From: Parcubacteria group bacterium Gr01-1014_8 | GTDB taxonomy: Bacteria; Patescibacteriota; Minisyncoccia; Phycocordibacterales; UBA2100 | Length of the DNA stretch: 64,000 nucleotides | Reading direction: 5' to 3' | NCBI GenBank assembly: GCA_007376385.1 | Contig: VMGC01000003.1 | Location: forward strand, 32,001-96,000 | Shown: positions 15,998-64,000 of the stretch, piece by piece | Layout of the letters: every line of letters starts with the position of its first letter | How positions within the stretch are numbered: position 1 is the stretch's first letter | Position numbers and translations under genes: made by a program | Notes under the pieces: generated by a model | Seen by the model: the letters and a program-made list of their open reading frames with translations, nothing else | Database searches by the model: none | Told to the model about the DNA's origin: nothing

Positions 15998-16002
15998 GTA
16001 CT

Positions 16003-16287
16003 CTATTGAGCTTGGGTCGTTACGTTAACGGTTTGACCATCGCACGTTATTTGCTCAGGCGGAGATGACGTTGAAAATAGCTCATGACGAATATCCCAAT
16101 AGAGCGCACATTCTGCCCCAGTGTCTGCAGCGTAAAATGCGAATTGCGAATCTCTTCCTATGGAAGAAAGAATGACGCTTTTACGCGCGATGGTTACGAT
16201 AGCCAGTCCCAGCGCGAGTGAAAGCGAGGCGATAAGAGCCGAAAGAAGGAGTGTAAAACCGCGGCTTTTTTCCTTTGGAAATTTCAT
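16003..16287 (-). CDS. Prepilin-type N-terminal domain protein (minor pilin / pseudopilin)
   Basis: Basic leader followed by GFTLLLSALIASLSLALG. Start at the internal Met gives 94 aa. Confidence 0.55.
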   Translation of the reverse strand: MKFPKEKSRGFTLLLSALIASLSLALGLAIVTIARKSVILSSIGRDSQFAFYAADTGAECALYWDIRHELFSTSSPPEQITCDGQTVNVTTQAQ

Positions 16288-16297
16288 ATCAATATCA

Positions 16298-17703: not shown

Positions 17704-17704
17704 A

Positions 17705-18406: not shown

Positions 18407-19170
18407 ACTAGTATGCAGCTTGCGATGAGAAAGGGACCAAAGGGAACCTCGCTCTCCATTGTAAAGCGCGGAGCGCCCCTGCTCAATGGAGTTATCCCAA
18501 TCTTCTCCGCATACGCAAGAAGCACAGGAAGCGGGAGTAAGATACAGACACTTACGACGGCACCGATAATGAACGCACATAGTATGGCAAAAGGACCCGC
18601 GATGGGTCCTAAAAGAAAACCAATAGTAAATGCAAGTTTTACGTCGCCGAGTCCCATCCATTTGCCTCTCGACACAAGCCACAGCGAAAAAAGCGGCGTT
18701 GCAGTGGCAAGAGCGCCAAGAACTACGTATGTAATTTGGGACGCCTCTTCCATCGCAAGGAGGCCATACACAAATGCGACTACGCCCGCTGCATAGCTCC
18801 ACACATCAGGAATAACTGTGTGGTATATATCGTACACAGTGATCGCTACAAAGAGTGCCATGATGAGCACTCCTAAGATCTTTAATTCGATAGGAAGCGG
18901 GGAAAGACCCACCAGAACAAAAAGTAGCGCCGTTCCTATTTCAACCAGTGGATATTGCAAAGATATGCGATTCTTGCAATAGCGACATGCGCCCCCTAAG
19001 TAGACAAAAGAAAACACGGGTACGAGATCGACAACCTTGAGTACCGTCCGACACGAAGGACATGCGCTTCTTCCCATCAAATCCCGCTTCCCTTCTCGCA
19101 GGATAAGCACATTCACAAAACTCCCAATGATCAACCCAGATGCGCCAAAGAGGAATGCTTCGAGGACCAC
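18361..19170 (-). CDS. pilD: Prepilin peptidase (A24 family)
   Basis: 269 aa. N-terminal Cys-X-X-Cys...Cys-X-X-Cys zinc box (CPSCRT...CRYCKN). Multi-TM C-terminus with catalytic Asp-containing loops. Confidence 0.85.
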   Translation of the reverse strand: MVLEAFLFGASGLIIGSFVNVLILREGKRDLMGRSACPSCRTVLKVVDLVPVFSFVYLGGACRYCKNRISLQYPLVEIGTALLFVLVGLSPLPIELKILGVLIMALFVAITVYDIYHTVIPDVWSYAAGVVAFVYGLLAMEEASQITYVVLGALATATPLFSLWLVSRGKWMGLGDVKLAFTIGFLLGPIAGPFAILCAFIIGAVVSVCILLPLPVLLAYAEKIGITPLSRGAPRFTMESEVPFGPFLIASCILVWQLNVYGISIPFLP

Positions 19171-19246
19171 AGGGAAAAGAATAGCACAACGCCCCCTCCT
19201 TGGGGGCGTTGTGTATCCGCTCTTTTAGGCGGTAGAAGACTTTCCC

Positions 19247-19756
19247 CTACGGCTTCACGCAATACGACGGATCATCACATGTGGTAGCGCCACCTGCGAG
19301 CCCCGCCCAAAGTCCGTCAACGTCACCGAGTGGAACCGCGCTAGCGCCTCCTTCGATAACTGATTTAATGACGTAGCTAGAGCACGGCACTGCCGTACAT
19401 GCTGCACCTGCCCCGTCGGCAGAAGCATACGAGTACACGTACGAACCACTGTTCGTCGGGTCACTTGATATCTGTGAGATGAACTGCTCTGTGACAAGAG
19501 CCCCAAGTCCGCTGGCAGCACCCATGTCTGTTGTGCCAGACACACCACCCGCAACAACTGCTGGGTATGATTGGTGCGCATCGTAGTACAACTCAAGCGC
19601 TAACTGCATTTGCTTCATGTCCGCGATGCGGCGTGCATCACGTCCCTTCTTTCGCGCGCTGTTCAAGGACGCAAGAACGACGGACGAAAGAATACCGATG
19701 ATGGCGATAACCACCAATAGTTCAATGAGAGTGAAGCCTCTCGATGTTCGATTCAT
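19247..19756 (-). CDS. Type IV pilin (major pilin candidate)
   Basis: Start at MNRTSRG|FTLIELLVVIAIIGILSSVVLASL: canonical class III signal with Glu5. About 169 aa. Confidence 0.8.
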   Translation of the reverse strand: MNRTSRGFTLIELLVVIAIIGILSSVVLASLNSARKKGRDARRIADMKQMQLALELYYDAHQSYPAVVAGGVSGTTDMGAASGLGALVTEQFISQISSDPTNSGSYVYSYASADGAGAACTAVPCSSYVIKSVIEGGASAVPLGDVDGLWAGLAGGATTCDDPSYCVKP

Positions 19757-19791
19757 AAAATAAGATTTATTACTAATGTTACTAATAATGG

Positions 19792-20265
19792 CTAATTGCA
19801 ACCGGATCGAACGCTTCCGTTTGCATCAACGTATACCATTCCAGGGGTCGTCCGGGGCCCCGTTCCGACTTCCAGATATGCACACGCTTGCCAATTCTGG
19901 GTAGTCGCCCCCCCTGTTGAGAGATCCGCCTGCGTACCGATGGCATAATCGCATGCACTGCCCGATCCTTCAGTGCAGGCGGTGGTGGAGCCGGAGGGAT
20001 CTTTATATGCCGACAGATCTGGCGTCGTACACGTGCTGACTCGAGCTGCCCCTGATGTGCAACCTACAAAGGTCGTAGCAGCTCCACCCGTATCAGCAAT
20101 GGCAACTGCGTTGCCTATTTGGCGAAGATCCTCTACGCGGCGCGTATCGCGGCCTTTTTTACGAGCATTATTCAAGGACGCCAAAATGACCGAGGACAAG
20201 AGCCCAATAACCGCAATAACCACCAATAGTTCAATGAGAGTGAAGCCTCTGTTTTTTTCTTGCAT
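19792..20265 (-). CDS. Type IV pilin (major pilin candidate)
   Basis: 157 aa. MQEKNRG|FTLIELLVVIAVIGLLSSVILASLNNARKKGRD. Paralogue of the adjacent pilin. Confidence 0.85.
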   Translation of the reverse strand: MQEKNRGFTLIELLVVIAVIGLLSSVILASLNNARKKGRDTRRVEDLRQIGNAVAIADTGGAATTFVGCTSGAARVSTCTTPDLSAYKDPSGSTTACTEGSGSACDYAIGTQADLSTGGATTQNWQACAYLEVGTGPRTTPGMVYVDANGSVRSGCN

Positions 20266-20365
20266 AGCGGATCATTAACACAGCGTCTCCCCACTTTTCA
20301 CAGGGCGGCCGCCTAATTATACGGAATTATTGACGTCATTGGCGTCTGCCTGTGGATAGCTTCAT

Positions 20366-21574
20366 CTAGAGACCCGACGCAATGTTGTAGATAGGAACAA
20401 GAACAGCCGCGAGCAGTATTGCAACCCCAAGGGCGAGCCCTACGATCATCACCGGCTCGATAAGAGAAACAAGAGTATCTATTGCATTATTGACTTCCCG
20501 CCGATAGTAACGCGACATCGTGTCCAGAATATTGCCCATATTGCCGGTCTCCTCTCCTATCTTCATCATCGCGACGATGATACCCGGAACTTCCGGATGT
20601 TTGCGGAATGCTTCGGATACGGGGAGTCCCGCCTTCACATCGGTAGCAACTTCTGTTAATACTTTTTCATAGGTGACATCGCCCACAACGCTTGCAGTGA
20701 TCTCAAGCCCGCGCAGCATTTGAATGCCACTTTTTAACATTGTTGCGAGGTTGTCGGACATGCGGGAGAGGTAAAGCTTTCGATAAATGACGCCAATGAT
20801 CGGCATCTGCAATCTTGCTCGCGAGAGAAAAAGCATGCCGTTCTCGCTCTTGCCATATCGGAATATGAAAACGCCGCTAATAACAAGAAGGACCCCCAAG
20901 AGTAATATGTAGTTTGATAGAAATGTGCTTATGCCTATGACTATTCTTGTGTAAATAGGCACGGCCTGTCCTACCTCCTCAAGCATCAGCGCGAGACGCG
21001 GTATGACAAGAGTGAGCATAAGGATCATAACAACCACGAACGTAAGCAGAATGAACGCTGGATAGACGAGCGCATTTTTCGCTTTTTGCGTGATCTCATA
21101 GTTTCTGTCGAGGTACTCCGCAAGAAATGCGAACGTCTCGTCTAATTTACCCGTTTCCTCGCCGGCGCGAACCATGTTCACATAGAACGGCGAGAACACA
21201 TCTGGCTGACGCGAAAGAGCAGCCGCTATAGAGCTTCCACTTTGAATGTCATTCGCGACTTCAGTGAGTTTTTCGGCAAGCTTCGGTGTTCTCGCCTCAG
21301 CTGCTAGCAATCTGAATGCGCGAAGCGCAGATACCTGTGCTTCGAAAAGCGTGGTTATCTGGCGCGACACCATCACAAGATCGGAACTCTTTATCCTGTC
21401 AAATATCGCAACACGCGAAGTGAACGATTGCTTGATCTCAACCGGTTCTATGGAAGAGATGATCAAGCCTCTTCTCTGTATTGCGGTGATCGCAAGGTCT
21501 ATGTTCACCGCATCAATGGTGCCAGTGCGCTCTGTCCCGGTTTGATCAAGTGCTTTGTAAGAAAAAATTGCCAT
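20366..21574 (-). CDS. pilC: Type IV pilus assembly platform protein PilC (GspF family)
   Basis: 402 aa. Two GspF repeats and three TM segments. Confidence 0.9.
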   Translation of the reverse strand: MAIFSYKALDQTGTERTGTIDAVNIDLAITAIQRRGLIISSIEPVEIKQSFTSRVAIFDRIKSSDLVMVSRQITTLFEAQVSALRAFRLLAAEARTPKLAEKLTEVANDIQSGSSIAAALSRQPDVFSPFYVNMVRAGEETGKLDETFAFLAEYLDRNYEITQKAKNALVYPAFILLTFVVVMILMLTLVIPRLALMLEEVGQAVPIYTRIVIGISTFLSNYILLLGVLLVISGVFIFRYGKSENGMLFLSRARLQMPIIGVIYRKLYLSRMSDNLATMLKSGIQMLRGLEITASVVGDVTYEKVLTEVATDVKAGLPVSEAFRKHPEVPGIIVAMMKIGEETGNMGNILDTMSRYYRREVNNAIDTLVSLIEPVMIVGLALGVAILLAAVLVPIYNIASGL

Positions 21575-21595
21575 GAAAACAGAATATCGAGCTGT

Positions 21596-22657
21596 CTACA
21601 ACAACTTTTGCAACACATTCGGGTTTAGAGAATACTGGTACGCGCTTTCCACCGATATCTCCCCCTTCCCTACAAGTTCAGCGAGGGAACGGTTCATGTC
21701 TATCATTCCTTCAGTCGAGGATGTTTCAATGACCGTATTTATCTCATGAGTTCTCTTTTCGCGAATGAGGTTCGCGACCGCTTTATTATTTATAAGAAGT
21801 TCGTATGCCGGGATCAATCCGCCTGATATGCGCGGGATGAGACGTTGTGAGAAGATCCCGGCGAGAGACGCCGCAAGCTGAAGGCGTATTTGGTCTTGCT
21901 GGTTCGCAGGGAAAGTGTCAATGATACGGTCGATGGTCTGCGCGGCATTGTTCGTATGAAGCGTCGAAAAGACCAGATGACCGGTTTCAGCCGCTGTAAC
22001 AGCAGCGGCCATCGTCTCTGGTCCTCGCATTTCCCCTACCAAGAGAACGTCAACGTCCTCTCGGAACGCAGATAGAAGCGCGGAAGCGAAGTCTTTTGTG
22101 TCAATGCCAACCTCTCTCTGATCTATCAATGATTGTTTCGGAGTGTGCACATATTCTATCGGGTCTTCCACCGTGACGATATGTTCCATACGCTCCGTAT
22201 TGATGAGTTCGATCAAAGACGCAAGCGTCGTCGTCTTTCCTTGCCCCACCGGGCCTACCACCAAAAAGAATCCTTGTGATTTTCGCGCGAACGACTCCAA
22301 CACGTCGGGGAGATTCAATTCTTGCACGGAACGTATCGTCTTAGGGATAAGCCTCAGAGCGATGCCGACGGCACCGCGCTGAAAGAACGCATTACCTCTG
22401 AAACGGGTACCGTCCTCAGTCTGATACGCAAAATCTACTTCCTTGGTATCAAAGAATCGTTTCTGTTGTTCCGGTGTCAGGAGCGCTTTCGCGAACCCAA
22501 GCGTATCTTCCGGAGTTAGAACTGGTTCTTTCAACATTGGCGAGAGCGAGCCCGCTACGCGTATGGTGGGATGTGCTTCTGTTGAAAAATGAAGGTCAGA
22601 TGCACCTTCATGTATGACCACATTAATATACTTTGCCAGTGTTTGAGGATAATCCAT
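21596..22657 (-). CDS. pilT: Twitching-motility / pilus retraction ATPase PilT
   Basis: 353 aa. Walker A GPVGQGKTTT, Asp box, His box; PilT-type AIRNLIRE-like motif (ANLIREKR). Confidence 0.9.
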   Translation of the reverse strand: MDYPQTLAKYINVVIHEGASDLHFSTEAHPTIRVAGSLSPMLKEPVLTPEDTLGFAKALLTPEQQKRFFDTKEVDFAYQTEDGTRFRGNAFFQRGAVGIALRLIPKTIRSVQELNLPDVLESFARKSQGFFLVVGPVGQGKTTTLASLIELINTERMEHIVTVEDPIEYVHTPKQSLIDQREVGIDTKDFASALLSAFREDVDVLLVGEMRGPETMAAAVTAAETGHLVFSTLHTNNAAQTIDRIIDTFPANQQDQIRLQLAASLAGIFSQRLIPRISGGLIPAYELLINNKAVANLIREKRTHEINTVIETSSTEGMIDMNRSLAELVGKGEISVESAYQYSLNPNVLQKLL

Positions 22658-22913
22658 ATGAAATCCCTAAGAGGAAAGCGAGTGTGTTGCTCCCTTCTCC
22701 CGACTCATGCACGCTACACACGACATTGTAACCTATTTTTTGTACGCACATGAGGAACTGTGTGAAGAAGTGGGATTTCTGTTTATACCTCTAGCGAGTC
22801 CGGGTGCCGGATGCGGTTTGTAGGGACCCCGCAGCCGACAGACGAGGACTCGAGGATTTTTCTAGAAAGAAAAATCCGTGCCCGGAAAACCGCATCCGGC
22901 ACCCTGCGAGCGT

Positions 22914-23360
22914 CTATTTCTTTCCTATGGCCTCCATCGTCATCGTGACCACCTCCGAAGGTATCATGCTTGCCTTAACGACATACTTATCGACACCAAG
23001 CTTTTCCGCCTGCACTTTGTCACCATCATTGCTCTGATTCGTGAGGGCTATTGTTTTTGCACCCTCCGCTAATTTCTCTTCTTTGACTCTACTCAAGAAA
23101 CTAAATCCATCGTCCCCTGGCATGACAATATCGAAAAGAATAGCCGCAGGCTTAAGACCTCCTCGAAGCACCGTGAGAGCGTCCGCTGTAGACTGGCATG
23201 CCTCAACCGCAAATCCCTTCTGCATGAACTTCATACTGTACATATCAAGAAGGAAGTGGTCGTCATCGACTAGCAGGATGGTTCCATTCTGCCCCGGGGA
23301 GGACGCGGGCATAGATGGCTTTTGCGGCCCACTCGCGCTATTTTGTTTTTCTTCAGCCAT
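22914..23360 (-). CDS. CheY-like response regulator receiver protein (single domain)
   Basis: 148 aa. Acidic pocket DDD, phospho-acceptor Asp in ILFDIVMPG, conserved T and K. Embedded between pilB and pilT. Confidence 0.8.
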   Translation of the reverse strand: MAEEKQNSASGPQKPSMPASSPGQNGTILLVDDDHFLLDMYSMKFMQKGFAVEACQSTADALTVLRGGLKPAAILFDIVMPGDDGFSFLSRVKEEKLAEGAKTIALTNQSNDGDKVQAEKLGVDKYVVKASMIPSEVVTMTMEAIGKK

Positions 23361-23377
23361 ACAGGATCATTTCTCTT

Positions 23378-25123
23378 TTAAACATCTGTAGTCTCTGTTT
23401 CAGTTTTTGCTGCAACCTCCTTCTCGGTTTCATCTGCCAAAAGCAAGGTACTCAAGGAATCAATCTCAGAATAAGGAACCATTTTTGCGAACGACTTCAG
23501 CATAGCATCCTCTCTCATCGTGAGCATTCCCTGCGCGCGAGACACCCGCCACAATTCCGACTCGACGGGATTCTTTAGGACAATATGCTCGATGTCCGAC
23601 CCCATTTCCATGACCTCAAAGACTGCCATTCTTCCCTTTAATCCTGTCATGCAGCCGGGTGATTTCTCCGGTTCAAATATTGTGTCCGGTACCTTGAATC
23701 GGTATTTTTCCGGAAGACTTGAAAGCTGCTCTTCGATGTTCTTTCTGATAGATGGCGTCATGGGGACTTCCTTCCCTGTCCCTGCACAGAGTGTGCGCAC
23801 AAGCCGCTGGGCAACCGAAGCGATGAGAACAGGCGGAATAAGGTAGGGTTCCACGCCCATATCGATGAGCCTCGGAATCGTCCCAACTGCATCGTTCGTG
23901 TGGATGGTCGAGAGCACCAAGTGACCCGTAAGCGCCGCCTGCACGGCAAGTTTTGCCGTTTCTGCATCGCGGATCTCACCCACCATGATGATATCGGGGT
24001 CTTGTCGGAGTGTCGTACGAAGGCCAGTCGCGAAGGTGTATCCTATCTCAGGCCTGACTTGTGATTGCGTAATACCTTCCACGTAATACTCGATCGGATC
24101 TTCGAGTGAAAGCACGTTCTTATGTTCCCTGTCCAGCTCTGATAGCATTGAATACAACGTCGTCGATTTACCGCTTCCCGTGGGACCCGAGATGAGTACC
24201 AAGCCGTGCGGCTGTTTTATCGCGTTGCGTAACAATTTCAGATTTCTCTCCGAGAGTCCGATTGAATCGAGGGGAATAAATCCCTTATCACGGTCAAGGA
24301 TCCGAACAACAACCTTCTCACCATTGGATGAAGGAAATGTGGAAACACGAAAGTCTATCTGCCTTTGCTCAATAGAAGCAGAAAAACGTCCATCCTGTGG
24401 TTTTCGTTGTTCATCGAGCCGTATTGAGGCCAAAACCTTGATACGTGCGACAAGCGCTCGATGAGTATTTGCCGGCAGAATAACACTCGTATGAAGATCT
24501 CCATCCACTCGGTAACGAACGCGAACTCCCGTCGGTGTCGGTTCGATGTGGATGTCGGACGCATTACCATCAATGGCATACCTAAGGATAGTGGACACTA
24601 TCTTTATCGTCGGCGCATCCTCCTGAATGACTTGTGTCGGCCCCTCTTTCGGCTTTGCGTTCCCAAGGTCCAATAGCGCTTGATCCAATTCATCCGTCGG
24701 CGGCCGCGTGTCTGATTCAGTTTGCAAGTCAGACACCGCTTGGTCCACGTCACCACCGAGAACGCGATACATTGCAATGACCTTCTTGAGATCCTCTTCT
24801 GATATTCGGAACACTTTGAAAGGAACGCCGGTCTTTCGTGCGATGAAGTTCAACGCGTCGATGCCTTCGATATCATCCGGATCAACCATGCCGACTTCCA
24901 AGACTCCTTCTTCAAGAGAAACGGGGGCAAAACGATAGTGCTCCGCCGCTTCTTGCGGAATGAACTTCAACACTTCGTACGGGATTTTGGTGTCTCCGAG
25001 AGCCTTTGAAGGAATATCAACAGATATATCCCCCGCGGCTCCTGGGGAAAAGTTGCTCGGTACCGGATTTGTTACTATCGGCTGGATTATGGTCATACTA
25101 CGTTCATCAACGTCACGCTGCAC
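23378..25123 (-). CDS. pilB: Type IV pilus assembly ATPase PilB (GspE family)
   Basis: 581 aa. N-terminal GSPII domain. Walker A GPTGSGKST. Tetra-Cys zinc motif region. Confidence 0.9.
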   Translation of the reverse strand: MQRDVDERSMTIIQPIVTNPVPSNFSPGAAGDISVDIPSKALGDTKIPYEVLKFIPQEAAEHYRFAPVSLEEGVLEVGMVDPDDIEGIDALNFIARKTGVPFKVFRISEEDLKKVIAMYRVLGGDVDQAVSDLQTESDTRPPTDELDQALLDLGNAKPKEGPTQVIQEDAPTIKIVSTILRYAIDGNASDIHIEPTPTGVRVRYRVDGDLHTSVILPANTHRALVARIKVLASIRLDEQRKPQDGRFSASIEQRQIDFRVSTFPSSNGEKVVVRILDRDKGFIPLDSIGLSERNLKLLRNAIKQPHGLVLISGPTGSGKSTTLYSMLSELDREHKNVLSLEDPIEYYVEGITQSQVRPEIGYTFATGLRTTLRQDPDIIMVGEIRDAETAKLAVQAALTGHLVLSTIHTNDAVGTIPRLIDMGVEPYLIPPVLIASVAQRLVRTLCAGTGKEVPMTPSIRKNIEEQLSSLPEKYRFKVPDTIFEPEKSPGCMTGLKGRMAVFEVMEMGSDIEHIVLKNPVESELWRVSRAQGMLTMREDAMLKSFAKMVPYSEIDSLSTLLLADETEKEVAAKTETETTDV

Positions 25124-25222
25124 GCAAAAAACATGTATATCAGTGCTTCCCAGTATACCGCGCTTCGCTCGCTGTCACATTTCAACACTCAAGAACATCG
25201 AGACGGTCCCCTTCAAAAGCGG

Positions 25223-39376: not shown

Positions 39377-41368
39377 TTAAACAAGCGGCTGATGCTCGAT
39401 GTCTTCCTTCTTTTTTGGAACAATTCCGTGCGCGATGAGGATCTTTTCGAATTCTTCTCGTTCGATGGTCTCGACTTCAATGAGTTGCTTTGCGATAGCG
39501 TCCAAAACCTTGCGATATTTCTTCATGACGTCTTCTGCCCGCTTGTATGCGCCCTCGACTATCTTTTTCACTTCCGAATCTATCGCGGCTGATACTTCCT
39601 CCGATAACTCTCCGGGTTCGATACCAGCACCAAAAAGTGTCCGGCCAGGCGCAGCTTCGAGCGCGACGGGCCCCATCTTGTCCGACATACCATACTTGGT
39701 GACCATGTCGCGCGCCAGCGCTGAGAGAACCTGCAGGTCATTTGATGCTCCTGTCGTGATGTCGTTGAAGATCATCTTTTCTGCGATGTACCCGCCAAGA
39801 GAAACAGCGATATCATCCAAAAATTCCAGTTTCGATTGCATGCGTCGGTCTTCAAGCGGAAGTTTGAGCGTGTATCCTGCAGCGCGCCCGCGCGAAATGA
39901 TAGAAACTTTGTGTACGGGGTCCGCATACGTCAAGACCGACGCAATGAGCGCATGTCCCGCCTCGTGATACGCCGTTATCTCCTTCTCTTTCTTGTTAAG
40001 CACGTGGCTCCGCCTCTCTGGTCCAAGCATCACCTTCTCTATCGAACGAATGAGGTCGTATTGTGTCACTTCCTTTCTGTCCTCGCGCGCAGCAAGGATT
40101 GCAGCCTCATTCATAAGATTCGCCAAGTCCGCGCCTGAAAACCCCGGGGTTCTCTCTGCAATGACCATAAGATTCGTATCCGGCCCCATCGGTTTCTGCC
40201 TCGCGTGTATCTTGAGGATCGCTTCGCGATCCGACCTGTCCGGCAGATCGATAGTTACCCGCCTGTCGAATCGCCCGGGACGAAGCAGAGCGGGATCAAG
40301 CACGTCCGGACGGTTCGATGCCGCCATGACGATAACTTTTTCATTCGGTTCAAATCCATCCATCTCGACGAGTATTTGGTTCAACGTCTGTTCGCGCTCA
40401 TCATTTCCCCCTCCCACTCCAGAACCACGAACTCGCCCGACAGCGTCTATCTCATCCATGAACACAATGGCCGGTGCGGCTTTTTTCGCGGTTTGAAATA
40501 AGTCACGTACGCGCGAAGCGCCGACACCCACGAACATCTCCACAAATTCAGAACCGGATATTGAAAAGAAAGGAACACCTGCTTCACCCGCAACCGCTCG
40601 TGCTAAGAGCGTCTTTCCTGTTCCAGGCGCGCCCATCAAGAGAACACCCTTGGGGATACGCGCGCCTATCTGAATGAACTTTTTTGGATTCTTCAAAAAG
40701 TCGACTATCTCTGCAAGTTCCGCTTTTGCTTCTTTTGCACCGGCAACATCTGCGAACGTAACTTTTTGAACCGTATCTTCCGGAGAAATAAGACGAGCCA
40801 TCGAGCGACCAAAAGTGAATGCTTGCATGCCGGCACCCCTCACCTGCCTTGAAAGGAACCACATGATGCCAAGAAGAAGCAAAACCGGGATTAAAAGCGG
40901 CGCGAGCGTGAGAAACCAAAAGCGCGCGCCGCCCTGGTCCTGTATCTCTATCTTTATTGCCGCAATCTCCTCCGGTGAAAGTCCGTAACGCGCTAAGGTC
41001 TCGGTAAGCGGCGCCTCTCCTTCCTTCTGCGAAGTTTTTTCACTTTCATCTTTGTATGTTGCCTTGATAGTGTCACCTTCAACGGTGAGAGACACTACTT
41101 TGTCATCGCGAATGTCATTGGCAAGCTGCGATATTGCTATCTCATCCGCCCCGCTCTCAATATATTTGCGAACTGCCGAATAGCCCGCTGAAAGTACGAG
41201 AAAAACTGCGAACGCAACTGCTAGCTGCATCCAAATACCCGGTCCTTCCGACGGAGGAACGGCGGGTTTTTTCCCTTTTTTTCCGTGCAGATCGCCCGGA
41301 GTCATTTCTTCGGACATAGACAGCGCATTATACATAAATAGCTTGTCGCAGCTAGTTTGCGGCGACAA
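39377..41368 (-). CDS. ftsH: ATP-dependent zinc metalloprotease FtsH
   Basis: 663 aa. Two N-terminal TM helices. AAA+ Walker A GAPGTGKT, Walker B, second region of homology. Zn motif HEAGHAL. Confidence 0.95.
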
Positions 41369-50475: not shown

Positions 50476-53127
50476 CTACCGAGGCCGCGTTCCGGACTCC
50501 TTGGCTATGTACGAGGCAAGGCCGCCAGGTCTCGAGTAAGCGTACACGTCTTTTATTCCCATATCGTGGGCGAGCATCAAAACCATCTCTATCAATTGAC
50601 TCGAAACCGGTGCATCCGGCGTTATCACGATATCGTCCGAAGGAGTCGGATATTTGAGAAGCATGTTGTATCCAAGAGAGCTTTCGTCTTCCGGTCTGCT
50701 ATTAGGAATAACATCAACAAGTGACGCGCCCTCCCTCTGTCCGCCTTTTGGTTTCTTGTGGAATCGCATGACCGGATCATGCCCGGCATGAAGGTACTTT
50801 CGAACCTCCTCGGCATTTAGGGTACGCGTTACTTTTGGGATCGGCTTTTGCTGATAATCGGACGAGCAGATAGATATGCAGACGAGAGCATTGCCATGAG
50901 GATCGAGAACGGCAGGCGTCAATAATGCATCATAGGTCGTATGCAAGAGTGCGTTGGCTGAAAGGCTTGTGCGTGCGATCGCTATCTGCCCAAGAAGGTT
51001 ATCCTTTTCATCAGCGGCAAGAATGACAAGATGCTTCTGTATGTTCTTTTCATACTCGCTCTTCTCCGGCGAAAGATTGTCCCAGCACTGTCGGTACAAC
51101 TCATACGAGGGAGCCATCCATCGTGAATATCGGTGAAGAATGGTAAACCGGATTATCGGTTTCTGGACTCCTCGGCTCGGAGATGTGGAAACTGTGTTTT
51201 CCCACCTCCCTCGCTCTACGTCGCCGGTAAAACGACGTGCCGGCATTTTGAGAAGTCCGAATATTGATTCAAAACGCTCGTAGGGCAATGTCTTCTTCAA
51301 AACGCTCCGCTGCACTTTGCCCGTCGACGTCATCGGCAATTCGTCAGCGGAAAAAGAGGTGAGATACTTCGGCGTCTCATATGCGCTTAAGTACGCCGTG
51401 CCGAATAGAAGCGACAACTTGAGCCGACGTTTGGCCTTCTTCTCATCTGTACCCGCTTTCCAGCAAATGACCGCGCCCGCCTCTTCTCCGTAGCGCTCAT
51501 CGGGAACAGCAACAACGTACACCTGGTCGATCTCAGGAGATATCTTTTTCAAGGCATTCTCAAGAGCAACGGGCGAGATGTTAACCCCGCCCTTGATGAT
51601 GATCTCCCGCTTGCGGCCCTTCAGATAGAAGAATTTCTGCTCGCCAACGACCTTAAAATATCCGATGTCGCCCGAGAGAAAATATCCGCCTGCCTGCCGC
51701 GTCCGACCAGCGCTATATTCACGTCTTAACCATTTTCGACCAAACCCTGTTTTTAAGTTTTTCTCCCGCTGTACCGCTTCTTTCAACGATGGAAATTCTT
51801 CGTGGTGAATAATTCCTATCGGTTTATGCTTTTTGGTGTGCTCGGCGGCTATACCGTTATAATGTTGTCGCCATCGTTCATGTATATCTTGAGTTTGACC
51901 GATATAAAATGAACCATCATCACACTTGATGACATAAACATAGAACATTTCTGGTCGCGGCGCAGGCAGGTCACGGATGGCCGGCTCATTCGTAACATAC
52001 CCCTCCATAACGGCAGGCCCGCGTATCACCAGTTCACCTTCTTCTCCTTCACCGAGAAAGTTTCCTTTCTCATCCGATATCTGCACGTCGGCCCATGACA
52101 TTGCCGAGCCAATAGAATTTTCCTCTATCAGTTTCTCGTATAGACCAGGGGGCAGTCCCATAGGTACCCCGGTAACGCGAAGCGCTGTTTCAGTCTGCCC
52201 ATATCCTTGGTAGAGCGGAATATCGAATTTCGTCATGAACTCTTGCATCGTATGCACGACCACAGGAGCCGAGCCTATTTGGATGCGATTGAGCCGCAAT
52301 CCTTTTTTAACGAGCGCGTAACTCTCGGAGCGTCCTACTTGATCGAACAGGATGGATTGCACTATTGATGTGCAGGTTGCCTGACTTTTCGCAGCCTGCT
52401 GCCAGAAATGTGAGTTTGAGTAATTCGGCGTGATCGCAATGCTGCCGCCTGCGAGAAGCGCCGACAGGCAAAATGTGGTGGAATTTATGTGGTGCAACGG
52501 GAGGTTTACCAGAAACCTGTCTTCTTCTGTCATGTGAAGCCATTCCTTGATGCCTTCTGCGTTCACAACAAGGTTATTGAGAGTCAGTTTTGCTCCTTTT
52601 GGATACCCTGTAGTCCCTGATGTAAATAAAATAAGGGCACAATGTGAAAGACCGGATTCCCAGGCTACCGGTCTATCTGTAATATCGGCAAATCCCGCAA
52701 ATTCCTGGACTTTGACTTCTTTCAAAAAAATACTCTCAATATTTTTAAGCGCCTCCTTTTCTGCTATCAATAATGTTGCGTTGTTTATTTTTAATTTGTA
52801 TTGATACAACTCGCCGGTATCTCGCTTAGTATCGAGTGGAACAGTTACGACTCCGATACTCCACGCAGCCCAGCTTATTATGAGGAGTTCGGGCGAATTC
52901 TTAAATGCGAGAGCTACTCTATCGCCTCGTTTGATATCAAGCGCGTATAAATAGAGCGCAGCCTGTTTGATTTTCTGCAGCAATTCTTTGTACGTGATCT
53001 CCCCCGAGATCGTTCCTTCGTGATCACACGAGAGGAGCGCGACTTTTCCCGGATTCTTTTGCGAGAGAGCAGAAATGTGCGAGTAGAGGCTTTGTATGGA
53101 AGCATGCTGCATAACAATCATCCTCAA
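50476..53127 (-). CDS. Multidomain protein: AMP-binding (acyl-CoA synthetase-like) enzyme with an inserted YhbQ-type GIY-YIG domain and an uncharacterised C-terminal domain
   Basis: 883 aa in one frame. Adenylate-forming motifs LFTSGTTGYPKGAKL (A3), YGQTE (A5), ...SGDIGYF (A8) and PMTSTGKVQR (A10). Residues about 386-478 (FYVYVIKCDDGSFYIGQTQDIHERWRQH...EFPSLKEAVQREKNLK) match the GIY-YIG/YhbQ fold and sit exactly at the N/C-domain hinge. Residues about 620-883 have no known motif. Confidence 0.7.
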   Translation of the reverse strand: MRMIVMQHASIQSLYSHISALSQKNPGKVALLSCDHEGTISGEITYKELLQKIKQAALYLYALDIKRGDRVALAFKNSPELLIISWAAWSIGVVTVPLDTKRDTGELYQYKLKINNATLLIAEKEALKNIESIFLKEVKVQEFAGFADITDRPVAWESGLSHCALILFTSGTTGYPKGAKLTLNNLVVNAEGIKEWLHMTEEDRFLVNLPLHHINSTTFCLSALLAGGSIAITPNYSNSHFWQQAAKSQATCTSIVQSILFDQVGRSESYALVKKGLRLNRIQIGSAPVVVHTMQEFMTKFDIPLYQGYGQTETALRVTGVPMGLPPGLYEKLIEENSIGSAMSWADVQISDEKGNFLGEGEEGELVIRGPAVMEGYVTNEPAIRDLPAPRPEMFYVYVIKCDDGSFYIGQTQDIHERWRQHYNGIAAEHTKKHKPIGIIHHEEFPSLKEAVQREKNLKTGFGRKWLRREYSAGRTRQAGGYFLSGDIGYFKVVGEQKFFYLKGRKREIIIKGGVNISPVALENALKKISPEIDQVYVVAVPDERYGEEAGAVICWKAGTDEKKAKRRLKLSLLFGTAYLSAYETPKYLTSFSADELPMTSTGKVQRSVLKKTLPYERFESIFGLLKMPARRFTGDVERGRWENTVSTSPSRGVQKPIIRFTILHRYSRWMAPSYELYRQCWDNLSPEKSEYEKNIQKHLVILAADEKDNLLGQIAIARTSLSANALLHTTYDALLTPAVLDPHGNALVCISICSSDYQQKPIPKVTRTLNAEEVRKYLHAGHDPVMRFHKKPKGGQREGASLVDVIPNSRPEDESSLGYNMLLKYPTPSDDIVITPDAPVSSQLIEMVLMLAHDMGIKDVYAYSRPGGLASYIAKESGTRPR

Positions 53128-55725: not shown

Positions 55726-56544
55726 ATGCATGCGTTCTATATTGCGCTTCTCGCTCTCGTCATTCTCGCCCTGACCGTGGCGACAACATGGTACCCGCCC
55801 TCATCGTCGAATAGCCAGCTCGCATCGCCATCTCTAGAAACTGTCGCGCCGGAGACAGAAATGTCGGAAGCGACGGAAGGAGAGAAAAAAGAGACATATC
55901 GGGTGGTAAAGGTTGTCGACGGCGATACGCTCGCTCTCGAAATGGGCGGAAACAGCGTCACGGTGAGACTTATTGGTCTTGATACGCCTGAAACACTCGA
56001 CCCCCGTAAACCCGTGCAATGCTTTGGAAAAGAGGCGACGGAACATGCGAAAAAATTACTAGAAGGAAGGCGTGTGTCTATCGAAAAGGACCCGACACAA
56101 GGAGAATTGGACAAATACGGCCGCCTGCTGGTCTATGTGTATTTACCCGACCTGCCTGCCGAAGCCTCGGCGCAGGCAGGTGGCTTGATGTTCAACGAAC
56201 AAATGATATCGGAAGGTTACGGGCATGAGTACACATATAATATTCCTTACAAATATCAAACGGAATTTAAAGCCGCGGAAAATAAAGCGCGAGAGAGGAA
56301 ACGAGGTCTCTGGGCTGATAATGCGTGCGCCGAGGAATCAATGCGTGCACCAACCACTGCTGAAAAACCTATCGTGGTTGTGCCGTCGGGAAATTATGAC
56401 TGCACTCGCAATACATATAATTGCTCAAGTTTTAGAACGCAGACCGATGCGCAAGCCGCCTTTGGATCGTGCGGCGGGTCGGAGAACGATATACACAAAC
56501 TTGATAGTGATAAAGACGGGACTGTGTGCGAGAGCCTTCCGTAA
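55726..56544 (+). CDS. Secreted thermonuclease (SNase-like) with a C-terminal Excalibur Ca-binding domain
   Basis: 272 aa. N-terminal TM/signal. SNase core (VVDGDTL...RLIGLDTPE...YGRLL). C-terminal DxDxDGxxCE motif (DSDKDGTVCE). Confidence 0.75.
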   Translation: MHAFYIALLALVILALTVATTWYPPSSSNSQLASPSLETVAPETEMSEATEGEKKETYRVVKVVDGDTLALEMGGNSVTVRLIGLDTPETLDPRKPVQCFGKEATEHAKKLLEGRRVSIEKDPTQGELDKYGRLLVYVYLPDLPAEASAQAGGLMFNEQMISEGYGHEYTYNIPYKYQTEFKAAENKARERKRGLWADNACAEESMRAPTTAEKPIVVVPSGNYDCTRNTYNCSSFRTQTDAQAAFGSCGGSENDIHKLDSDKDGTVCESLP

Positions 56545-56603
56545 CTTCCACAAAGTGCGAAACCTTGGCACGATACCGACATTTGACTGCTATACTTTTG
56601 ACA

Positions 56604-57821
56604 ATGTACAAGGCGTTCAGCCGTGTCCTTGGGATCTTGATCGTTGTCATTCTCACGTCGGGAACATGGGCGTTTGCCACTCTGCCAAAGACAGTGGAGT
56701 TCGGCGGAGTAAAAATAAGCGAGGATACTGCAAAACATTTGAAAGGGGGGTGCGAGTACGACCCGTATGCAAAATTATATGAGCTGAAAGCCGTCTCGAG
56801 TGGGGCGAAAGTCACGCCCACGCTCATCGATGGAGCGTTGAAAGACGGCCTCGATCCAGCGCTCGTCTGCCGGCTCACAAAACTAATTGAATGGGCACAG
56901 GGTCGTGGCTGTGTCCCTATGATAATCTCCGGTTTTCGTACATACGCTCAACAGGCTTCGATAGTGGCAAGAGGCAGATCAAAGGCGGGGCCAGGAGGTT
57001 CCTGCCATAATTTCGGACTGGCAGTAGACATGTCGAACCGTTGCCAAGGGGCGATGCAGGAGGCGGCACCGCAATTTGGACTGAAAAGCGGATTCCCCGG
57101 ATATCCAAATCCGATCCACTTTCAATGCATCGAGCACAGCGCAGGTGCCGGACGATCTTCAGGGTGCAGAGGGTCGTGCAACGGAGGTATGGAAATCGCG
57201 CCAGACCCTACGATACTTTCCAATATCCCAAATAGCTCAGCTCCATTGGGCCTCGGAGATGCGTTTAGACAGAACACGGGATTGGGTCAGCAGGATCCGC
57301 CGTCACCTGCTATTCCCCCGCAGTATGCAACCGCACAACCTCAGCAATTTTTTCAGCCAACCCAGACGGGACAGCCCGGTCAGACCGGACAGCCGACGAC
57401 CATAGGAACACCGACGGGAGGAAGTACTATACCGACCACTGGAGAGCCTCCGCCGTCAGTAGGAGATAAATTGTTGAATCTAGCCTACGGAACTTCAACG
57501 ATAGGCGGCCCAGTCAACATTGCAACGACAGTTCCTATTATCGTTACAAGCAAAGATGCAACAGGTCTGCCCGCAAAATCCACGAGCACACGATCAAAAG
57601 GATTCTACGGCACAACAACATCGCCGCTACACTTTGAGGAGACGTTCGGGACGAGTGAATATGAAGACAACGGAACGTCCTCCGAGGTCGCAAGCAGAAA
57701 TTGGATGGTACGGATACTCGCAGAATTGCGGGCCACACTTCTTATGATACTTGAGATACTCCGACCCTTTGGCATTCGTACGATCATTGACGCCGAGACA
57801 TACGAGATCCACGATGAATGA
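56604..57821 (+). CDS. Secreted peptidase M15 (VanY/D-Ala-D-Ala carboxypeptidase-like) domain protein with a Pro/Gln/Thr-rich linker
   Basis: Signal/TM MYKAFSRVLGILIVVIL. M15 motifs SGFRTYAQQ...SCHNFGLAVD. Low-complexity P/Q/T linker. C-terminal domain unknown. Confidence 0.6.
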   Translation: MYKAFSRVLGILIVVILTSGTWAFATLPKTVEFGGVKISEDTAKHLKGGCEYDPYAKLYELKAVSSGAKVTPTLIDGALKDGLDPALVCRLTKLIEWAQGRGCVPMIISGFRTYAQQASIVARGRSKAGPGGSCHNFGLAVDMSNRCQGAMQEAAPQFGLKSGFPGYPNPIHFQCIEHSAGAGRSSGCRGSCNGGMEIAPDPTILSNIPNSSAPLGLGDAFRQNTGLGQQDPPSPAIPPQYATAQPQQFFQPTQTGQPGQTGQPTTIGTPTGGSTIPTTGEPPPSVGDKLLNLAYGTSTIGGPVNIATTVPIIVTSKDATGLPAKSTSTRSKGFYGTTTSPLHFEETFGTSEYEDNGTSSEVASRNWMVRILAELRATLLMILEILRPFGIRTIIDAETYEIHDE

Positions 57822-60472: not shown

Positions 60473-61084
60473 CTATTCAAGAATCCCGTCCAGGTTCACA
60501 TCGTACAAAATTTCTTCATGAATGATGCGATAGTTCGTCAATTCCTCCGGTTTGAACCAATGAGCTATCTCCACGTTCGCCTCCTCAACCGAGCCAGAAG
60601 CGTGGGCAAGGTTTCGGACGGCACGCCCGTCTTCATCCGCCATCTGGTATGAATCCAGGACGAAATCGCCTCGAATCGAGCCAACGTCTGATGTCAGCGG
60701 CTCTGTGCCTCCCGTCAGCTTCCGTACTATCTTAACGGCGTGAGCTCCTTGCAAGACCATCGCAACAACAGGTCCCGAGGAAAGATACTTCTTTAAGTTT
60801 GTAAGAATTTTCGCGGTAATTTCAAGTGGGTCCTGTGAAGGAGGTGTCATCCCCTTGTCCAAATACCCCTTGATGGTCTTTTCTCCCGTGACCTTTCTCC
60901 AGTTTGGATCGAGCGTGTAGTGCGTTTCGACATGCTCTGGTGTTGGCACCATCATTTTCATGCCGACGAGCTTTAAGCCCGAAGACTCGTAGCGATTGAT
61001 TATCTCTCCTATCAAAGAGCGTTGAACCGCATCTGGCTTAATAACAACGAGCGTGCGTTCTTTGCTGTGATGGTCTTGCGGCAT
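60473..61084 (-). CDS. ndk: Nucleoside-diphosphate kinase (long form with an insertion)
   Basis: 203 aa. ERTLVVIKPDAVQRSLIGEII at the N-terminus and catalytic NxxHxSD-like region (NLAHASGSVEEA). Confidence 0.8.
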   Translation of the reverse strand: MPQDHHSKERTLVVIKPDAVQRSLIGEIINRYESSGLKLVGMKMMVPTPEHVETHYTLDPNWRKVTGEKTIKGYLDKGMTPPSQDPLEITAKILTNLKKYLSSGPVVAMVLQGAHAVKIVRKLTGGTEPLTSDVGSIRGDFVLDSYQMADEDGRAVRNLAHASGSVEEANVEIAHWFKPEELTNYRIIHEEILYDVNLDGILE

Positions 61085-61103: not shown

Positions 61104-63929
61104 TTAGTAGGACGGCATCAAAGGATCTGCATACGGACTGCTCTGCGCTGCTTGATCACCTGCATATTTCTTTTTTATCTCGTCTTCAACTTCCTTGCGA
61201 TCCCTGCCGTACGTACGATACGAAAGTTCTTTCAGCGCGTCAACTGGAGTGTAATCTAAAGATGGCATCTTCACTGTCTTGATAGTAAATGGTCTCGCGG
61301 GCACCCCGTTCACAAGAAGTGCGACGCTTGCGTGGTAGTTCTGTTGATTCTCGAGGTCATGCCGCGTAAACACAGGATGGAATTGTTTTTCAAGGAATTC
61401 CGCGTCGGTCGTACCGATGCGAAAGACCATTTTTGTACCGACGTTACCGATAACAGCATCTCGTATTTTCTCTTCGAGCTGTGCAATGAATTGGTGCGCA
61501 ATTGTCAGCGAGAGTTTGTATTTACGAGCTTCGGAAAGGATGGTCCCTATGGACGGCGTCGCGAAGTTTTGGAATTCGTCGATATAAAGATAGAAAACCG
61601 GAAGGTCTGCAGATTTCGCATCAACGCGTGAAAATGCCGCTTGCAGGAACTTTGATACGAGAACAAGACCAAGAAGCGACGTATTCCTATCGCCAAGCCT
61701 GCCTTTCGAGAGGTTCGCGAGAAATATTTTCTTTCCATCAAGGATCTCCCGGAAATCGAACGCAGATTTTTCTTGCGCTACGATCGGACGCATGATGTCG
61801 TTGGCGAGGAAAACGTCGAATTTGCTGGTAATGTACGGTGCGACGTTCTCAAGCGATGGATCTCCTCCCGCTTTTTCCGCGATGCCTCTCCAGAATTGGA
61901 CGATAACGGGGTTGGGACACCGTGAAAGTTTCAAATTCCGGAATCCTGGATCTGCAAAGATGCGTGGGATCTCGAGGAATGTTGAGCCGGAATCCGGGTC
62001 TTCGACAACGAGCTGCACCGCATTTCGGTAGTACTGCTCGAACATTGGACCGAATGCTTCAGGCACATCGGCGTACAGCTTTCGGAAGATTCCGTACACC
62101 TCGTCCACGACAAATGTTTTCATTTCCGGCTTGTTGCGGTCATATTCAAGCATATTTAGTCCCATCGGCCGTGCCGTATGCGCAGGATCGAAATAGATGA
62201 CATCTTTCGCCCGCTCTGGCGGAACCGATGCAAGAATATCCTCAATATCGGTGCCATGCGGGTCTATGTAGGCAACGCCGTCGCCATTTTTCATGTCCTG
62301 CATGATCATATTCTTCAGAAGCGACGTTTTGCCCGTACCTGTTTGCCCTATGACGTAACAATGACGCAGCCGATCCGCAGTGCCGTATTTCACCTCCCTC
62401 TCTTCTGCGCCGTAATGGTTGATACCAACGACTATGCCATCTTCCGGCATCTCAACAGGGGAAGGCGCTTGTTTTGCGTATGATTTCTTCAACTCGCGCG
62501 ACGTCGTGACACGTTGTGCTGTGAAGTGGAACATTGATGTAATTTCCGATAACGAGAGAGGTATCGCGTACGAATCGTTATGAACACGATATGTAAAATC
62601 GCGCAGGAACCCGGACAAGTTCCAGCGCGATATGCGATTGAATATCAAGTGATTGCCCCGCGGGTCATCAAGTTGATTGAAAGGCGCTTCGAGATTCTTG
62701 AGAAGATCCGTCGCTCTCTCTTCCGTAGGGGCAGACGCAACAATACGAACGACTGTAGGAGCGATGCGGCTTTTTATCTTGCGCCCGAATTCTTCATTCG
62801 CAACTTGGTCTGGATTTCGTCTGAATGTGCGGTCTTTTTCTTCTTTTATGTAGTTCTCCGATTTAAAAGAAACCTCTGCTATTTCTTTAATGGTATCTAG
62901 AAAGTAACTCTCCGGGGTCTTCAGAGCTTTGTGCAAGATCTTCCCTCTCTCCAGCTTCCGGATTATCCGCTTATAGTGCTCGTTGTAGCGGTCGCCGTCA
63001 TTTCCAACGACTATTTGAACCGCAGCACCTTCACCGTGCTTCGCAATCTTCGCGAATGCCGCAAGCATGACGTTCATTGGGTCATGTTCGAACATTTCGG
63101 GCGTTTTAAGCGGATACGCCGGGTGCTGCATCTGCGTGGCATATGCCGCAGCATGATAGCCTTCATAATTAAAAATGTTGTAATCTCCGCGGCATTCGCT
63201 GATGAGCGCATTGGGAAAGACAGAAGAAAGAAGACGCTCGGCAAGGGCCTGCCGCGCACGCGGTACGGCAAGGTAGAGTGTCGCTTCTTCCGTACCCTCA
63301 CCGACGGCTATCTCAAGAGAAAATCCTTCATTTTTGCCAAGCAAGGGAAGAAGCCCCGCATACAACTGTTCCGACGATGAAAGCACTTGTTCCAATTTTT
63401 GCTGCTGCTCACTTTCCTTCGTGCCCTCGCTATGCGCCTGAGGATGTATCTCAAAGAGTACGAGGTGCAACGCTTTGATTATCTTCTCTGGCGGTTTTGC
63501 GCCCTTTTGCGGAAGTCCCTGCGCAATGTACCGTATCAGTGCGCGATGAAGGTCATCCTCCAGATGCACATTTTTCATTTTAGCGACGATGGTGAGTGCA
63601 TTTCTGACGCCGTGCTGCTCAACTATCTTCAGGAGTTCATCTATCTGGGTGTCGTGGGTTTCCGGTTCGAGTTGGAGTGCCTTTCGCATTGCTTCGTACT
63701 CGGGCATGACAACTGCCTCGTGTAGCACTGATGCGGCGGGAGTTGCCGCATACTCCGCGACTTCACGTTTTGCGATGCGTTCTTGTTCTGCAATGTTACC
63801 GGCTGTTTCGAGTTCTTGCTCTTTTTCTTTCACTTTACCCCGCAAATAAGCAAGCTCCTCTTCTGGAGTATGGAATTTTTTTGGAGCGGCCACACGCAAC
63901 CGCTCTCCTACCGCAGAGTGAGGAGACAT
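61104..63929 (-). CDS. VirD4/TraG-like (type IV coupling protein-type) P-loop ATPase with a large N-terminal domain of unknown function
   Basis: 941 aa. Walker A GQTGTGKTS at about residue 530. Walker B-like LYIDEFQNF. C-terminal ...ARKYKLSLTIAHQFIAQL... resembling the TraG/VirD4 C-terminal region. No N-terminal TM helices. Confidence 0.6.
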   Translation of the reverse strand: MSPHSAVGERLRVAAPKKFHTPEEELAYLRGKVKEKEQELETAGNIAEQERIAKREVAEYAATPAASVLHEAVVMPEYEAMRKALQLEPETHDTQIDELLKIVEQHGVRNALTIVAKMKNVHLEDDLHRALIRYIAQGLPQKGAKPPEKIIKALHLVLFEIHPQAHSEGTKESEQQQKLEQVLSSSEQLYAGLLPLLGKNEGFSLEIAVGEGTEEATLYLAVPRARQALAERLLSSVFPNALISECRGDYNIFNYEGYHAAAYATQMQHPAYPLKTPEMFEHDPMNVMLAAFAKIAKHGEGAAVQIVVGNDGDRYNEHYKRIIRKLERGKILHKALKTPESYFLDTIKEIAEVSFKSENYIKEEKDRTFRRNPDQVANEEFGRKIKSRIAPTVVRIVASAPTEERATDLLKNLEAPFNQLDDPRGNHLIFNRISRWNLSGFLRDFTYRVHNDSYAIPLSLSEITSMFHFTAQRVTTSRELKKSYAKQAPSPVEMPEDGIVVGINHYGAEEREVKYGTADRLRHCYVIGQTGTGKTSLLKNMIMQDMKNGDGVAYIDPHGTDIEDILASVPPERAKDVIYFDPAHTARPMGLNMLEYDRNKPEMKTFVVDEVYGIFRKLYADVPEAFGPMFEQYYRNAVQLVVEDPDSGSTFLEIPRIFADPGFRNLKLSRCPNPVIVQFWRGIAEKAGGDPSLENVAPYITSKFDVFLANDIMRPIVAQEKSAFDFREILDGKKIFLANLSKGRLGDRNTSLLGLVLVSKFLQAAFSRVDAKSADLPVFYLYIDEFQNFATPSIGTILSEARKYKLSLTIAHQFIAQLEEKIRDAVIGNVGTKMVFRIGTTDAEFLEKQFHPVFTRHDLENQQNYHASVALLVNGVPARPFTIKTVKMPSLDYTPVDALKELSYRTYGRDRKEVEDEIKKKYAGDQAAQSSPYADPLMPSY

Positions 63930-64000
63930 AGGCTAATTATAGCCTAACGAAGCGAGTGAAGTGGGAACCTGTTCACACTTCCGAGCGAGTGACGGCTAGA

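Follow-up and report, generated by a model that had tools for sequence, protein, structure and literature searches.

A core ATPase of the Patescibacteria that combines a VirB4-type N-terminal fold with a VirD4-type motor

The stretch of DNA analysed here, 64,000 nucleotides of contig VMGC01000003.1 from Parcubacteria group bacterium Gr01-1014_8 (the window), encodes an ATPase that is a hybrid of two types of type IV secretion system (T4SS) ATPase. A domain with the fold of the VirB4 N-terminal domain (NTD), as judged from structure models, is followed by a nucleotide-binding domain (NBD) of the kind found in VirD4, the coupling protein of type IV secretion (T4CP), and is itself preceded by a helical module that other members of the family encode as a separate small protein, referred to here as c6. 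The family is a vertically inherited core gene of the Patescibacteria, as judged from conserved gene order. Our leading reading, which we place somewhat below an even chance, is that the protein is a ring ATPase driving a conserved substrate to a membrane channel, most likely that of a T4SS encoded elsewhere on the chromosome; the ring state, the association with the membrane and the substrate are all things that we infer.

The C-terminal half of the protein resembles a coupling protein. It passes the cutoffs of PF12696 (TraG-D_C; residues 780-847, 31.7 bits against a gathering cutoff of 22) and PF10412 (TrwB_AAD_bind; P-loop region, 25.3 bits against 20.5), and together with the open reading frame and the intact Walker A and Walker B motifs these matches confirm a first-pass annotation of the window, which had described a 941-residue VirD4/TraG-like ATPase. 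Among NCBIfam models only sub-threshold matches were obtained, to TraD, VirD4, TrbC and VirB4, all far below the equivalog cutoffs. A search of Protein Data Bank (PDB) sequences with the single protein returned P-loop matches only, to TrwB and DotL, and the family profile also detected only TrwB (1.7e-6) and DotL (3.1e-5) among PDB sequences. Members of a shorter form of the family, described below, pass the cutoffs of PF02534 (T4SS-DNA_transf) and PF10412 across the whole span from Walker A to Walker B (P0217 and P0249 in the case of TrwB_AAD_bind). When aligned with hhalign to the two ATPases of plasmid pGO1, the coupling protein TrsK was matched over 308 columns, compared with 91 columns, around Walker B, for the VirB4 protein TrsE. 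In terms of fold the ATPase half ties with the C-terminal domain (CTD) of VirB4 and with TrwB and stands well above FtsK, and the FtsK-type motor model PF01580 gave only 14 bits (E = 0.028) against a gathering cutoff of 24, so that the feature that would mark an FtsK/SpoIIIE protein is lacking.

The residues expected of a working motor are retained. K534, D784, E785, R802, K803, H812 and Q813 are invariant family-wide, and the conserved motif that follows Walker B, likely to be an arginine-finger or sensor region, keeps E800, A801, R802, K803, H812 and Q813 unchanged in all of 28 diverse members. The ATPase thus appears from its sequence to be catalytically intact and to belong to the VirB4/VirD4 branch of the FtsK-HerA superfamily, and by analogy with that family it presumably forms a ring (hexamer). 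Between Walker A and Walker B lies an all-alpha insertion, with eight helices in the AlphaFold2 (AF2) model, which was equated with the all-alpha domain of coupling proteins by its position. In plasmid T4CPs this domain is the variable, substrate-specific part. In the present family, unlike in those proteins, it is not variable but highly conserved, and matches the catalytic core in this respect, at 73% identity among long-form members and 50% over the family as a whole.

The first-pass annotation had described the N-terminal half as a long soluble, alpha-rich region with no recognisable motif. The protein is indeed soluble, and the annotated lack of a membrane anchor is upheld: no transmembrane (TM) segment was found, the highest Kyte-Doolittle (KD) value over any 19-residue window being 1.37, inside the ATPase domain. 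The description as alpha-rich holds only for residues 22-137, which are helical in the structure model; residues ~156-470 form a confident alpha/beta domain in the models. The full-length AF2 model has a mean predicted local distance difference test (pLDDT) score of 79.8, and a model of the domain only (residues 148-478) reaches a pLDDT of 87 and a predicted template modelling (pTM) score of 0.86. In a Foldseek search with the full model the full-length VirB4 protein TrwK ranks first (E = 2e-13), with colinear alignments of ~890 columns, compared with only 410-530 columns for TrwB, HerA and Cagbeta. The region is also not without a name, since a precomputed match to Pfam DUF8128 (PF26449) lies in the N-domain of the window protein, where it is marked weak, and of nearly all homologues; no mention of DUF8128 was found in the literature searched. 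When the family profile was compared with Bacillus plasmid VirB4 and with TrsD and TrsE of pGO1, no sequence homology of the N-domain to VirB4 was detectable, so the link is one of fold. The models therefore point to DUF8128 having a VirB4 NTD-type fold, and the supposedly featureless half resolves into a c6-like module followed by this domain.

Relatives of the protein are numerous. The closest homologues, of 925-960 aa and 70-86% identity, come from metagenome-assembled genomes (MAGs) of Candidatus Kaiserbacteria, Parcubacteria and Patescibacteria, and the source of the window is a Patescibacterium of the Kaiserbacteria type. With only the N-domain (residues 140-505) as query, 536 clusters at 50% identity were retrieved among 1.84 billion representatives, at least 429 GTDB species representatives encode relatives, nearly all of them Patescibacteria among the matches listed, and a short-form query found more than 4,000 proteins at E <= 1e-20. 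The family falls into two forms. The long soluble form, to which the window protein belongs, has ~905-960 aa, Walker A near residue 510-535 and no TM helix, whereas in the short form, of ~780-860 aa, Walker A is near residue 390-445 and a single TM helix (KD 2.2-3.7) is found at the N-terminus. Gene context was tested on 80 related loci from GTDB species representatives; no assembly occurs twice among them, so the two forms look like alternatives adopted by different lineages. A second long-form paralogue lineage, T2, with ~44-47% identity to the window protein, has a conserved context of its own (L108 5648-11411; also L026, L033, L047 and L083), in which an FtsH or DedA-like gene is followed by T2, a 957-aa low-complexity protein and genes for DUF5663 and FKBP proteins. 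The 957-aa protein is charged and His-rich, with no Pfam match, TM helix or Walker A motif.

The two forms are connected by a small partner protein. Short-form genes are directly preceded by a gene for a small protein of 125-170 aa without Pfam match, which belongs to either cluster c6 or cluster c18. When 16 stand-alone c6 proteins, and no others, were used to build a hidden Markov model (HMM), positions 9-128 of its 135 aligned with residues 20-139 of the window protein at E = 6e-12, and the model likewise recognised the N-termini of nearly all long-form members. In a joint alignment the stand-alone and fused versions share an N-terminal motif, F-x-[ST]-P-E-E-E-L-x-[YF]-L-R, and a C-terminal helix pair, G-[VI]-x2-A-x3-A-x5-[HY]-[IL]-x-D-x-[FL]-H-[RD]-x-L. 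No relatives of the module were found in Pfam or among PDB sequences. The HMM match and the shared elements indicate that the long form is a gene fusion, or Rosetta-stone link, of small partner and ATPase in which the TM helix has been lost. The ancestral layout would then have been an ATPase anchored by a single TM helix together with a small soluble partner, with fusion of the partner to the N-terminus and loss of the helix having probably taken place in Kaiser-, Nomura- and Taylorbacteria-type lineages. Loci of the c18 type have their own arrangement, in which the short form is usually followed by c19, a 213-aa protein without Pfam match, and then by dnaX (for example L084 10463-12691, L071, L082 and L088). 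No similarity of c18 to c6 or to the window protein was detectable.

The gene lies in a housekeeping neighbourhood. An identical protein is encoded on a 90.7-kb ENA contig that reaches past the edge of the window. Its gene there is preceded by purD, a GIY-YIG gene, map, adk, gmk, secY and the spc/S10 genes for ribosomal proteins, all in the same orientation, and followed by ndk and by genes of the DUF2238 and SLOG families. The annotation had seen no other T4SS genes in the window and had suggested looking beyond its end; no T4SS or relaxase genes were found within the window, nor past its edge on this contig. Among the other genes in the window are those for RecG, FtsH, CTP synthase, a type IV pilus cluster, threonine synthase, IF3 and L20, and the GC content is flat at 0.47-0.52. 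An integrative or conjugative element was considered and ruled out by the flat GC content, the housekeeping neighbours and a synteny kept at 46-100% identity. The locus is core chromosomal and not an integrative element, and the protein, with its anchor-less architecture and housekeeping neighbours, is not the standard coupling protein of such an element, in agreement with the annotation.

The gene order is conserved over considerable distances. The order rps/rpl-secY-(gmk)-adk-map-(purD), then the ATPase gene, then ndk is also found at homologues of 86%, 57%, 56% and 46% identity, and at another homologue of 46% identity the upstream part is kept and ndk is not downstream. Among the complete long-form loci from GTDB species representatives at least 12 of 31 have the housekeeping order, and the short form lies beside dnaX at 9 of 25 loci and at three unclassified ones. 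Since this synteny is kept across homologues, the family is taken to be vertically inherited and is probably co-expressed with housekeeping genes; a place after the ribosomal/secY/adk/map operon implies constitutive, housekeeping-level expression. The protein, unlinked to a T4SS, is not a rare orphan but one of a very large vertically inherited Patescibacteria family.

Both kinds of T4SS ATPase share part of this architecture. An NBD of RecA-like type, interrupted between Walker A and Walker B by an all-alpha insertion, is common to the protein and to the T4CPs TrwB of R388, DotL of Legionella and TrsK of pGO1. The protein differs from these T4CPs in having no N-terminal two-helix TM domain, in carrying a VirB4-type N-domain of ~315 aa ahead of the NBD, and in being encoded by a chromosomal, housekeeping gene unlinked to a relaxase or T4SS; we know of no characterised T4CP with a VirB4-type N-domain. 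With the VirB4 proteins TrwK of R388, VirB4 of T. pseudethanolicus and TrsE of pGO1 it shares the layout of an NTD followed by a RecA-like CTD, the short form being of ~800 aa with Walker A near residue 400-440. Unlike VirB4 it has no match to PF03135 and only P-loop matches to PF12846 (E = 0.068) and TIGR00929 (25.6 bits against a cutoff of 643), and hhalign gave a probability of 1% for a relationship with an AAA_10 VirB4 of a Bacillus plasmid. Its gene, unlike that of VirB4, is not placed with genes for VirB3, VirB6 and VirB8, and conjugation modules that contain a member of the family also hold a separate bona fide VirB4.

These conjugation modules are found on mobile elements of other bacteria. 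WP_229762801 and WP_121549396, 'DUF87 domain-containing' proteins of ~890-900 aa from Bacillus plasmids, are full-length homologues with ~22% identity to the window protein, and hhalign aligned one Bacillus plasmid protein over both domains (653 columns, probability 100%, E = 2.8e-45). The tblastn matches to mobile-element homologues cover residues 184-884, and PHROG 5156 (phrog_5156) is matched over residues 156-920 at 1e-63. Plasmids with a homologue include NZ_CP086062.1 and the MH-1 plasmid of B. subtilis. Two small Bacillus plasmids have the homologue as the first gene of a conjugation operon. There it overlaps or abuts a Replic_Relax gene, and behind it come a TcpE-family gene, a separate VirB4-type ATPase (AAA_10) and further transfer genes, so that it occupies the slot of the coupling protein. 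A similar layout was described in silico for pGIAK1 (PMC3756968), and on C. botulinum megaplasmids the homologue comes directly after a TrbC/VirB2 gene. Bacillus phage G (JN638751.1 89194-93336) encodes two adjacent ATPases, the VirB4-like gp155 (TraG P-loop/AAA_10) and then gp156, a full-length homologue of the DUF8128 family. SPO1-like phages (gp27.4) and IMG/VR contigs have relatives of the ATPase half only. The Bacillus plasmid and phage G relatives thus differ from the window protein in sitting on mobile elements, in or beside conjugation or VirB4-like genes.

Coupling proteins unlinked to a T4SS are already known from this phylum. By the count of Quinonero-Coronel et al. 2025 (PMC12102498), VirB4 is present in 2,417 of 3,035 Patescibacteria genomes, and VirD4-type T4CP homologues number 5,713 in 2,918 genomes. 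Since short-form members carry the NCBI name 'type IV secretory system conjugative DNA transfer family protein', the DUF8128 family is very probably included in these counts. Our proteins are like the orphan T4CP homologues of that study in belonging to the same phylum, in being abundant and in lying mostly away from virB4. As far as we have found, it describes neither the existence of two forms nor an N-domain like that of VirB4, a small partner that can be fused, or the fixed synteny with ribosomal operon and dnaX. Wang et al. 2023 (PMC10633639) noted that the T4SS of S. epibionticum, which is essential, has neither a recognisable coupling protein nor a recognisable relaxase.

A coupling role would bring these observations together as follows. 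Powered by ATP, the ring would pass a conserved substrate (DNA or an unfolded protein) to a channel in the membrane, where it would be docked by its VirB4-like N-domain together with the c6 adaptor, which would replace the TM anchor. The most plausible channel would be a chromosomal MPF_FATA-like T4SS (MPF, mating-pair formation), present elsewhere in the genome in ~80% of Patescibacteria. Translocation of DNA or another substrate by the window protein is plausible. Several points weigh against a T4SS as its partner. Only 148 of the T4CP homologues counted in PMC12102498 lie near virB4, and relaxases are described there as nearly absent from Patescibacteria, which makes a conjugative DNA substrate unlikely. 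The same paper reports that the t4cp homologue of S. epibionticum, which may or may not be a DUF8128 member, is not essential while the T4SS genes are, and for this reason its authors consider that exaptation of the t4cp 'cannot be ruled out'. No T4SS or conjugation genes were found near family members at the 80 loci or in other contexts, in what is a weak test with a distant Bacillus VirB4 as query. Finally, the all-alpha domain, conserved to the same degree as the core, is no better explained by coupling to a T4SS than by a fixed housekeeping substrate.

This last point leads to the alternative that fares best, which we regard as possible but rather unlikely: that the protein works independently of any T4SS as a housekeeping translocase of nucleic acids, an exapted pump or remodeller of chromosomal DNA or RNA in replication, segregation or division that would resemble FtsK/SpoIIIE or HerA and require no secretion channel. 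Such a role is favoured by the fixed place of this vertically inherited core gene behind the ribosomal/secY/adk/map operon, by the recurrence of the short form beside dnaX, by the conservation of the all-alpha domain, and by identities of 70-86% within Kaiserbacteria, very high for a protein of the candidate phyla radiation (CPR). The TM-anchored short form resembles FtsK in layout, and exaptation is explicitly allowed for in PMC12102498. The relatives on mobile elements are, however, found in conjugation modules, and no partner resembling a gamma domain or a nuclease accompanies the gene. A motif scan of 1.59 Mb of gene-neighbourhood sequence found no FtsK, which says little about whether these genomes also encode a canonical FtsK.

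The annotation had also proposed a link to the competence pilus, and a motor of this kind could pull DNA through ComEC behind a type IV pilus and so provide nucleotides to an organism unable to synthesise them. The window does encode a type IV pilus cluster and a secreted staphylococcal nuclease (SNase), the neighbours gmk, adk and ndk are nucleotide-salvage kinases, and a ComFC-like gene (Pribosyltran + DZR_2) and a PilM/PilO/PilB/PilT/PilC cluster are found 1-2 kb downstream of the short form in Wolfebacteria (L091/L092 11268-18379). The Wolfebacteria arrangement is nevertheless idiosyncratic, as PilB, PilT, PilC, PilM or ComFC genes lie within 8 kb at none of the 80 related loci, and the pilus cluster of the window is itself ~36 kb away. 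In most bacteria adk is part of the spc operon, so its adjacency carries no specific information. According to a review, mutation of comEC has no effect on the viability of S. epibionticum (PMC12857230). DNA uptake is therefore an improbable function, and the proposed link to the pilus is not supported across these loci. A role in defence, also raised by the annotation, here as a HerA-, DptH- or mad8-like component of an anti-phage or other conflict system, is less probable still, since the matches on which it would draw (PADLOC mad8 at 5e-15 over residues 522-870, HerA and DndH weakly, homologues in phages G and SPO1) are, for PADLOC, confined to the generic ATPase core, and a fixed housekeeping synteny, apparently vertical inheritance at 46-86% identity, the lack of an adjacent nuclease, methylase or Sir2 effector and a family that, by the counts given above, is common and not patchy all fit it poorly.

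The positions of the features of the gene and of its downstream neighbour are collected in Table 1. The two helices at the C-terminus, past the ATPase core, contain S903, G908, R911 and E915, which are invariant within the long form.

Table 1. Features of the ATPase gene and two further genes, in window coordinates.
Feature	Residues	Position	Strand	Remarks
Complete open reading frame, ATG start	941 aa	61104..63929	-	c6-like module, then VirB4-NTD-like domain (DUF8128), then T4CP-type ATPase
Helical module homologous to stand-alone small protein c6	18-140	63510..63878	-	c6 HMM and joint alignment
Alpha/beta N-domain, Pfam DUF8128, VirB4 NTD-type fold by models	~156-470	62520..63464	-	
RecA-like NBD, VirD4/VirB4/HerA clade	499-890	61260..62435	-	
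Walker A, GQTGTGKTS	528-536	62322..62348	-	G528, G531, G533 and K534 invariant family-wide
All-alpha insertion between Walker A and Walker B, at position of T4CP all-alpha domain	603-731	61737..62123	-	
Walker B, YLYIDEF	780-786	61572..61592	-	D784, E785, F786 and Q787 invariant
Conserved post-Walker-B motif, SEARKYKLSLTIAHQ	799-813	61491..61535	-	
Two C-terminal helices past ATPase core	896-929	61143..61244	-	AF2 model
ndk, co-oriented conserved downstream neighbour		60473..61084	-	19-nt gap
FtsH-like protein		39377-41368		

Upstream of the ATPase gene a perfect TATAAT ends 6 nt 5' of the ATG (GGCTATAATTAGCCTATG; window 63930-63950, upstream on the minus strand), and a Shine-Dalgarno sequence is not obvious. 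From its position the TATAAT might mark the start of a leaderless or near-leaderless transcript. It was not reported by the consensus promoter scan; the promoter and terminator scans gave results at chance level, and the 19-nt gap between the ATPase gene and ndk contains no terminator-like site.

Other genes of the window can be described briefly. The type IV pilus cluster (~16000-25200, minus strand), at a distance of ~36 kb from the ATPase gene and adjacent to ligA and gatCA, is complete: besides ATPases like PilB and PilT it encodes a response regulator, PilC, a prepilin peptidase and several N_methyl pilins. An 883-aa AMP-binding (acyl-CoA-synthetase-like) protein (50476-53127, minus strand) carries an in-frame GIY-YIG nuclease domain at residues 394-462. 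The insertion sits between the AMP-binding and AMP-binding_C domains, and the same architecture is present on the ENA contig; the protein also has a C-terminal extension of ~280 aa without Pfam match. Two successive genes lie on the plus strand. The first (55726-56544) encodes a member of the staphylococcal nuclease family whose N-terminal segment is hydrophobic and which has an Excalibur Ca-binding domain at the C-terminus; the product of the second (56526-57821) is a VanY-like D,D-carboxypeptidase that carries a long low-complexity tail rich in Pro, Thr, Gly and Gln. Judged by their domains, the two may form a module for extracellular DNA scavenging and cell-wall work.

That Patescibacteria carry orphan T4CP-like genes in abundance has been published before, and the N-domain already has a database entry as a domain of unknown function. 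What is new, as far as we have found, is the recognition of DUF8128 as a VirB4-type N-domain, the hybrid architecture, the small partner with its fusion and the fixed housekeeping synteny. A more far-reaching proposal, which we think unlikely, is that the DUF8128 family represents a third lineage of T4SS-type ATPases, not recognised before, which would have kept the ancestral VirB4-like N-domain on a VirD4-like motor, and so a living intermediate between VirB4 and the T4CPs. It would have been domesticated in Patescibacteria, with a dedicated small adaptor, as a constitutive housekeeping translocase. Its conserved substrate would be of central importance to a lifestyle that is epibiotic and scavenges nucleotides; the coupling ATPase that the essential T4SS appears to lack is one example of such a role.

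The Patescibacteria make up a large share of bacterial diversity, and the machines behind their host-dependent lifestyle are poorly understood. In Ca. S. epibionticum an essential T4SS cluster is without a recognised coupling protein, while thousands of unlinked T4CP homologues lack an explanation. The partner protein, the domain boundaries and the pair of fused and separate forms provide handles for deciding between a missing coupling ATPase and an exapted housekeeping translocase. Guglielmini et al. 2013 (PMC3548315) regard VirB4 and VirD4 as sister clades that arose from an ancestor that was soluble, and a protein that joins a VirB4-type NTD to a VirD4-type NBD bears on how these sister ATPases of the T4SS diverged.

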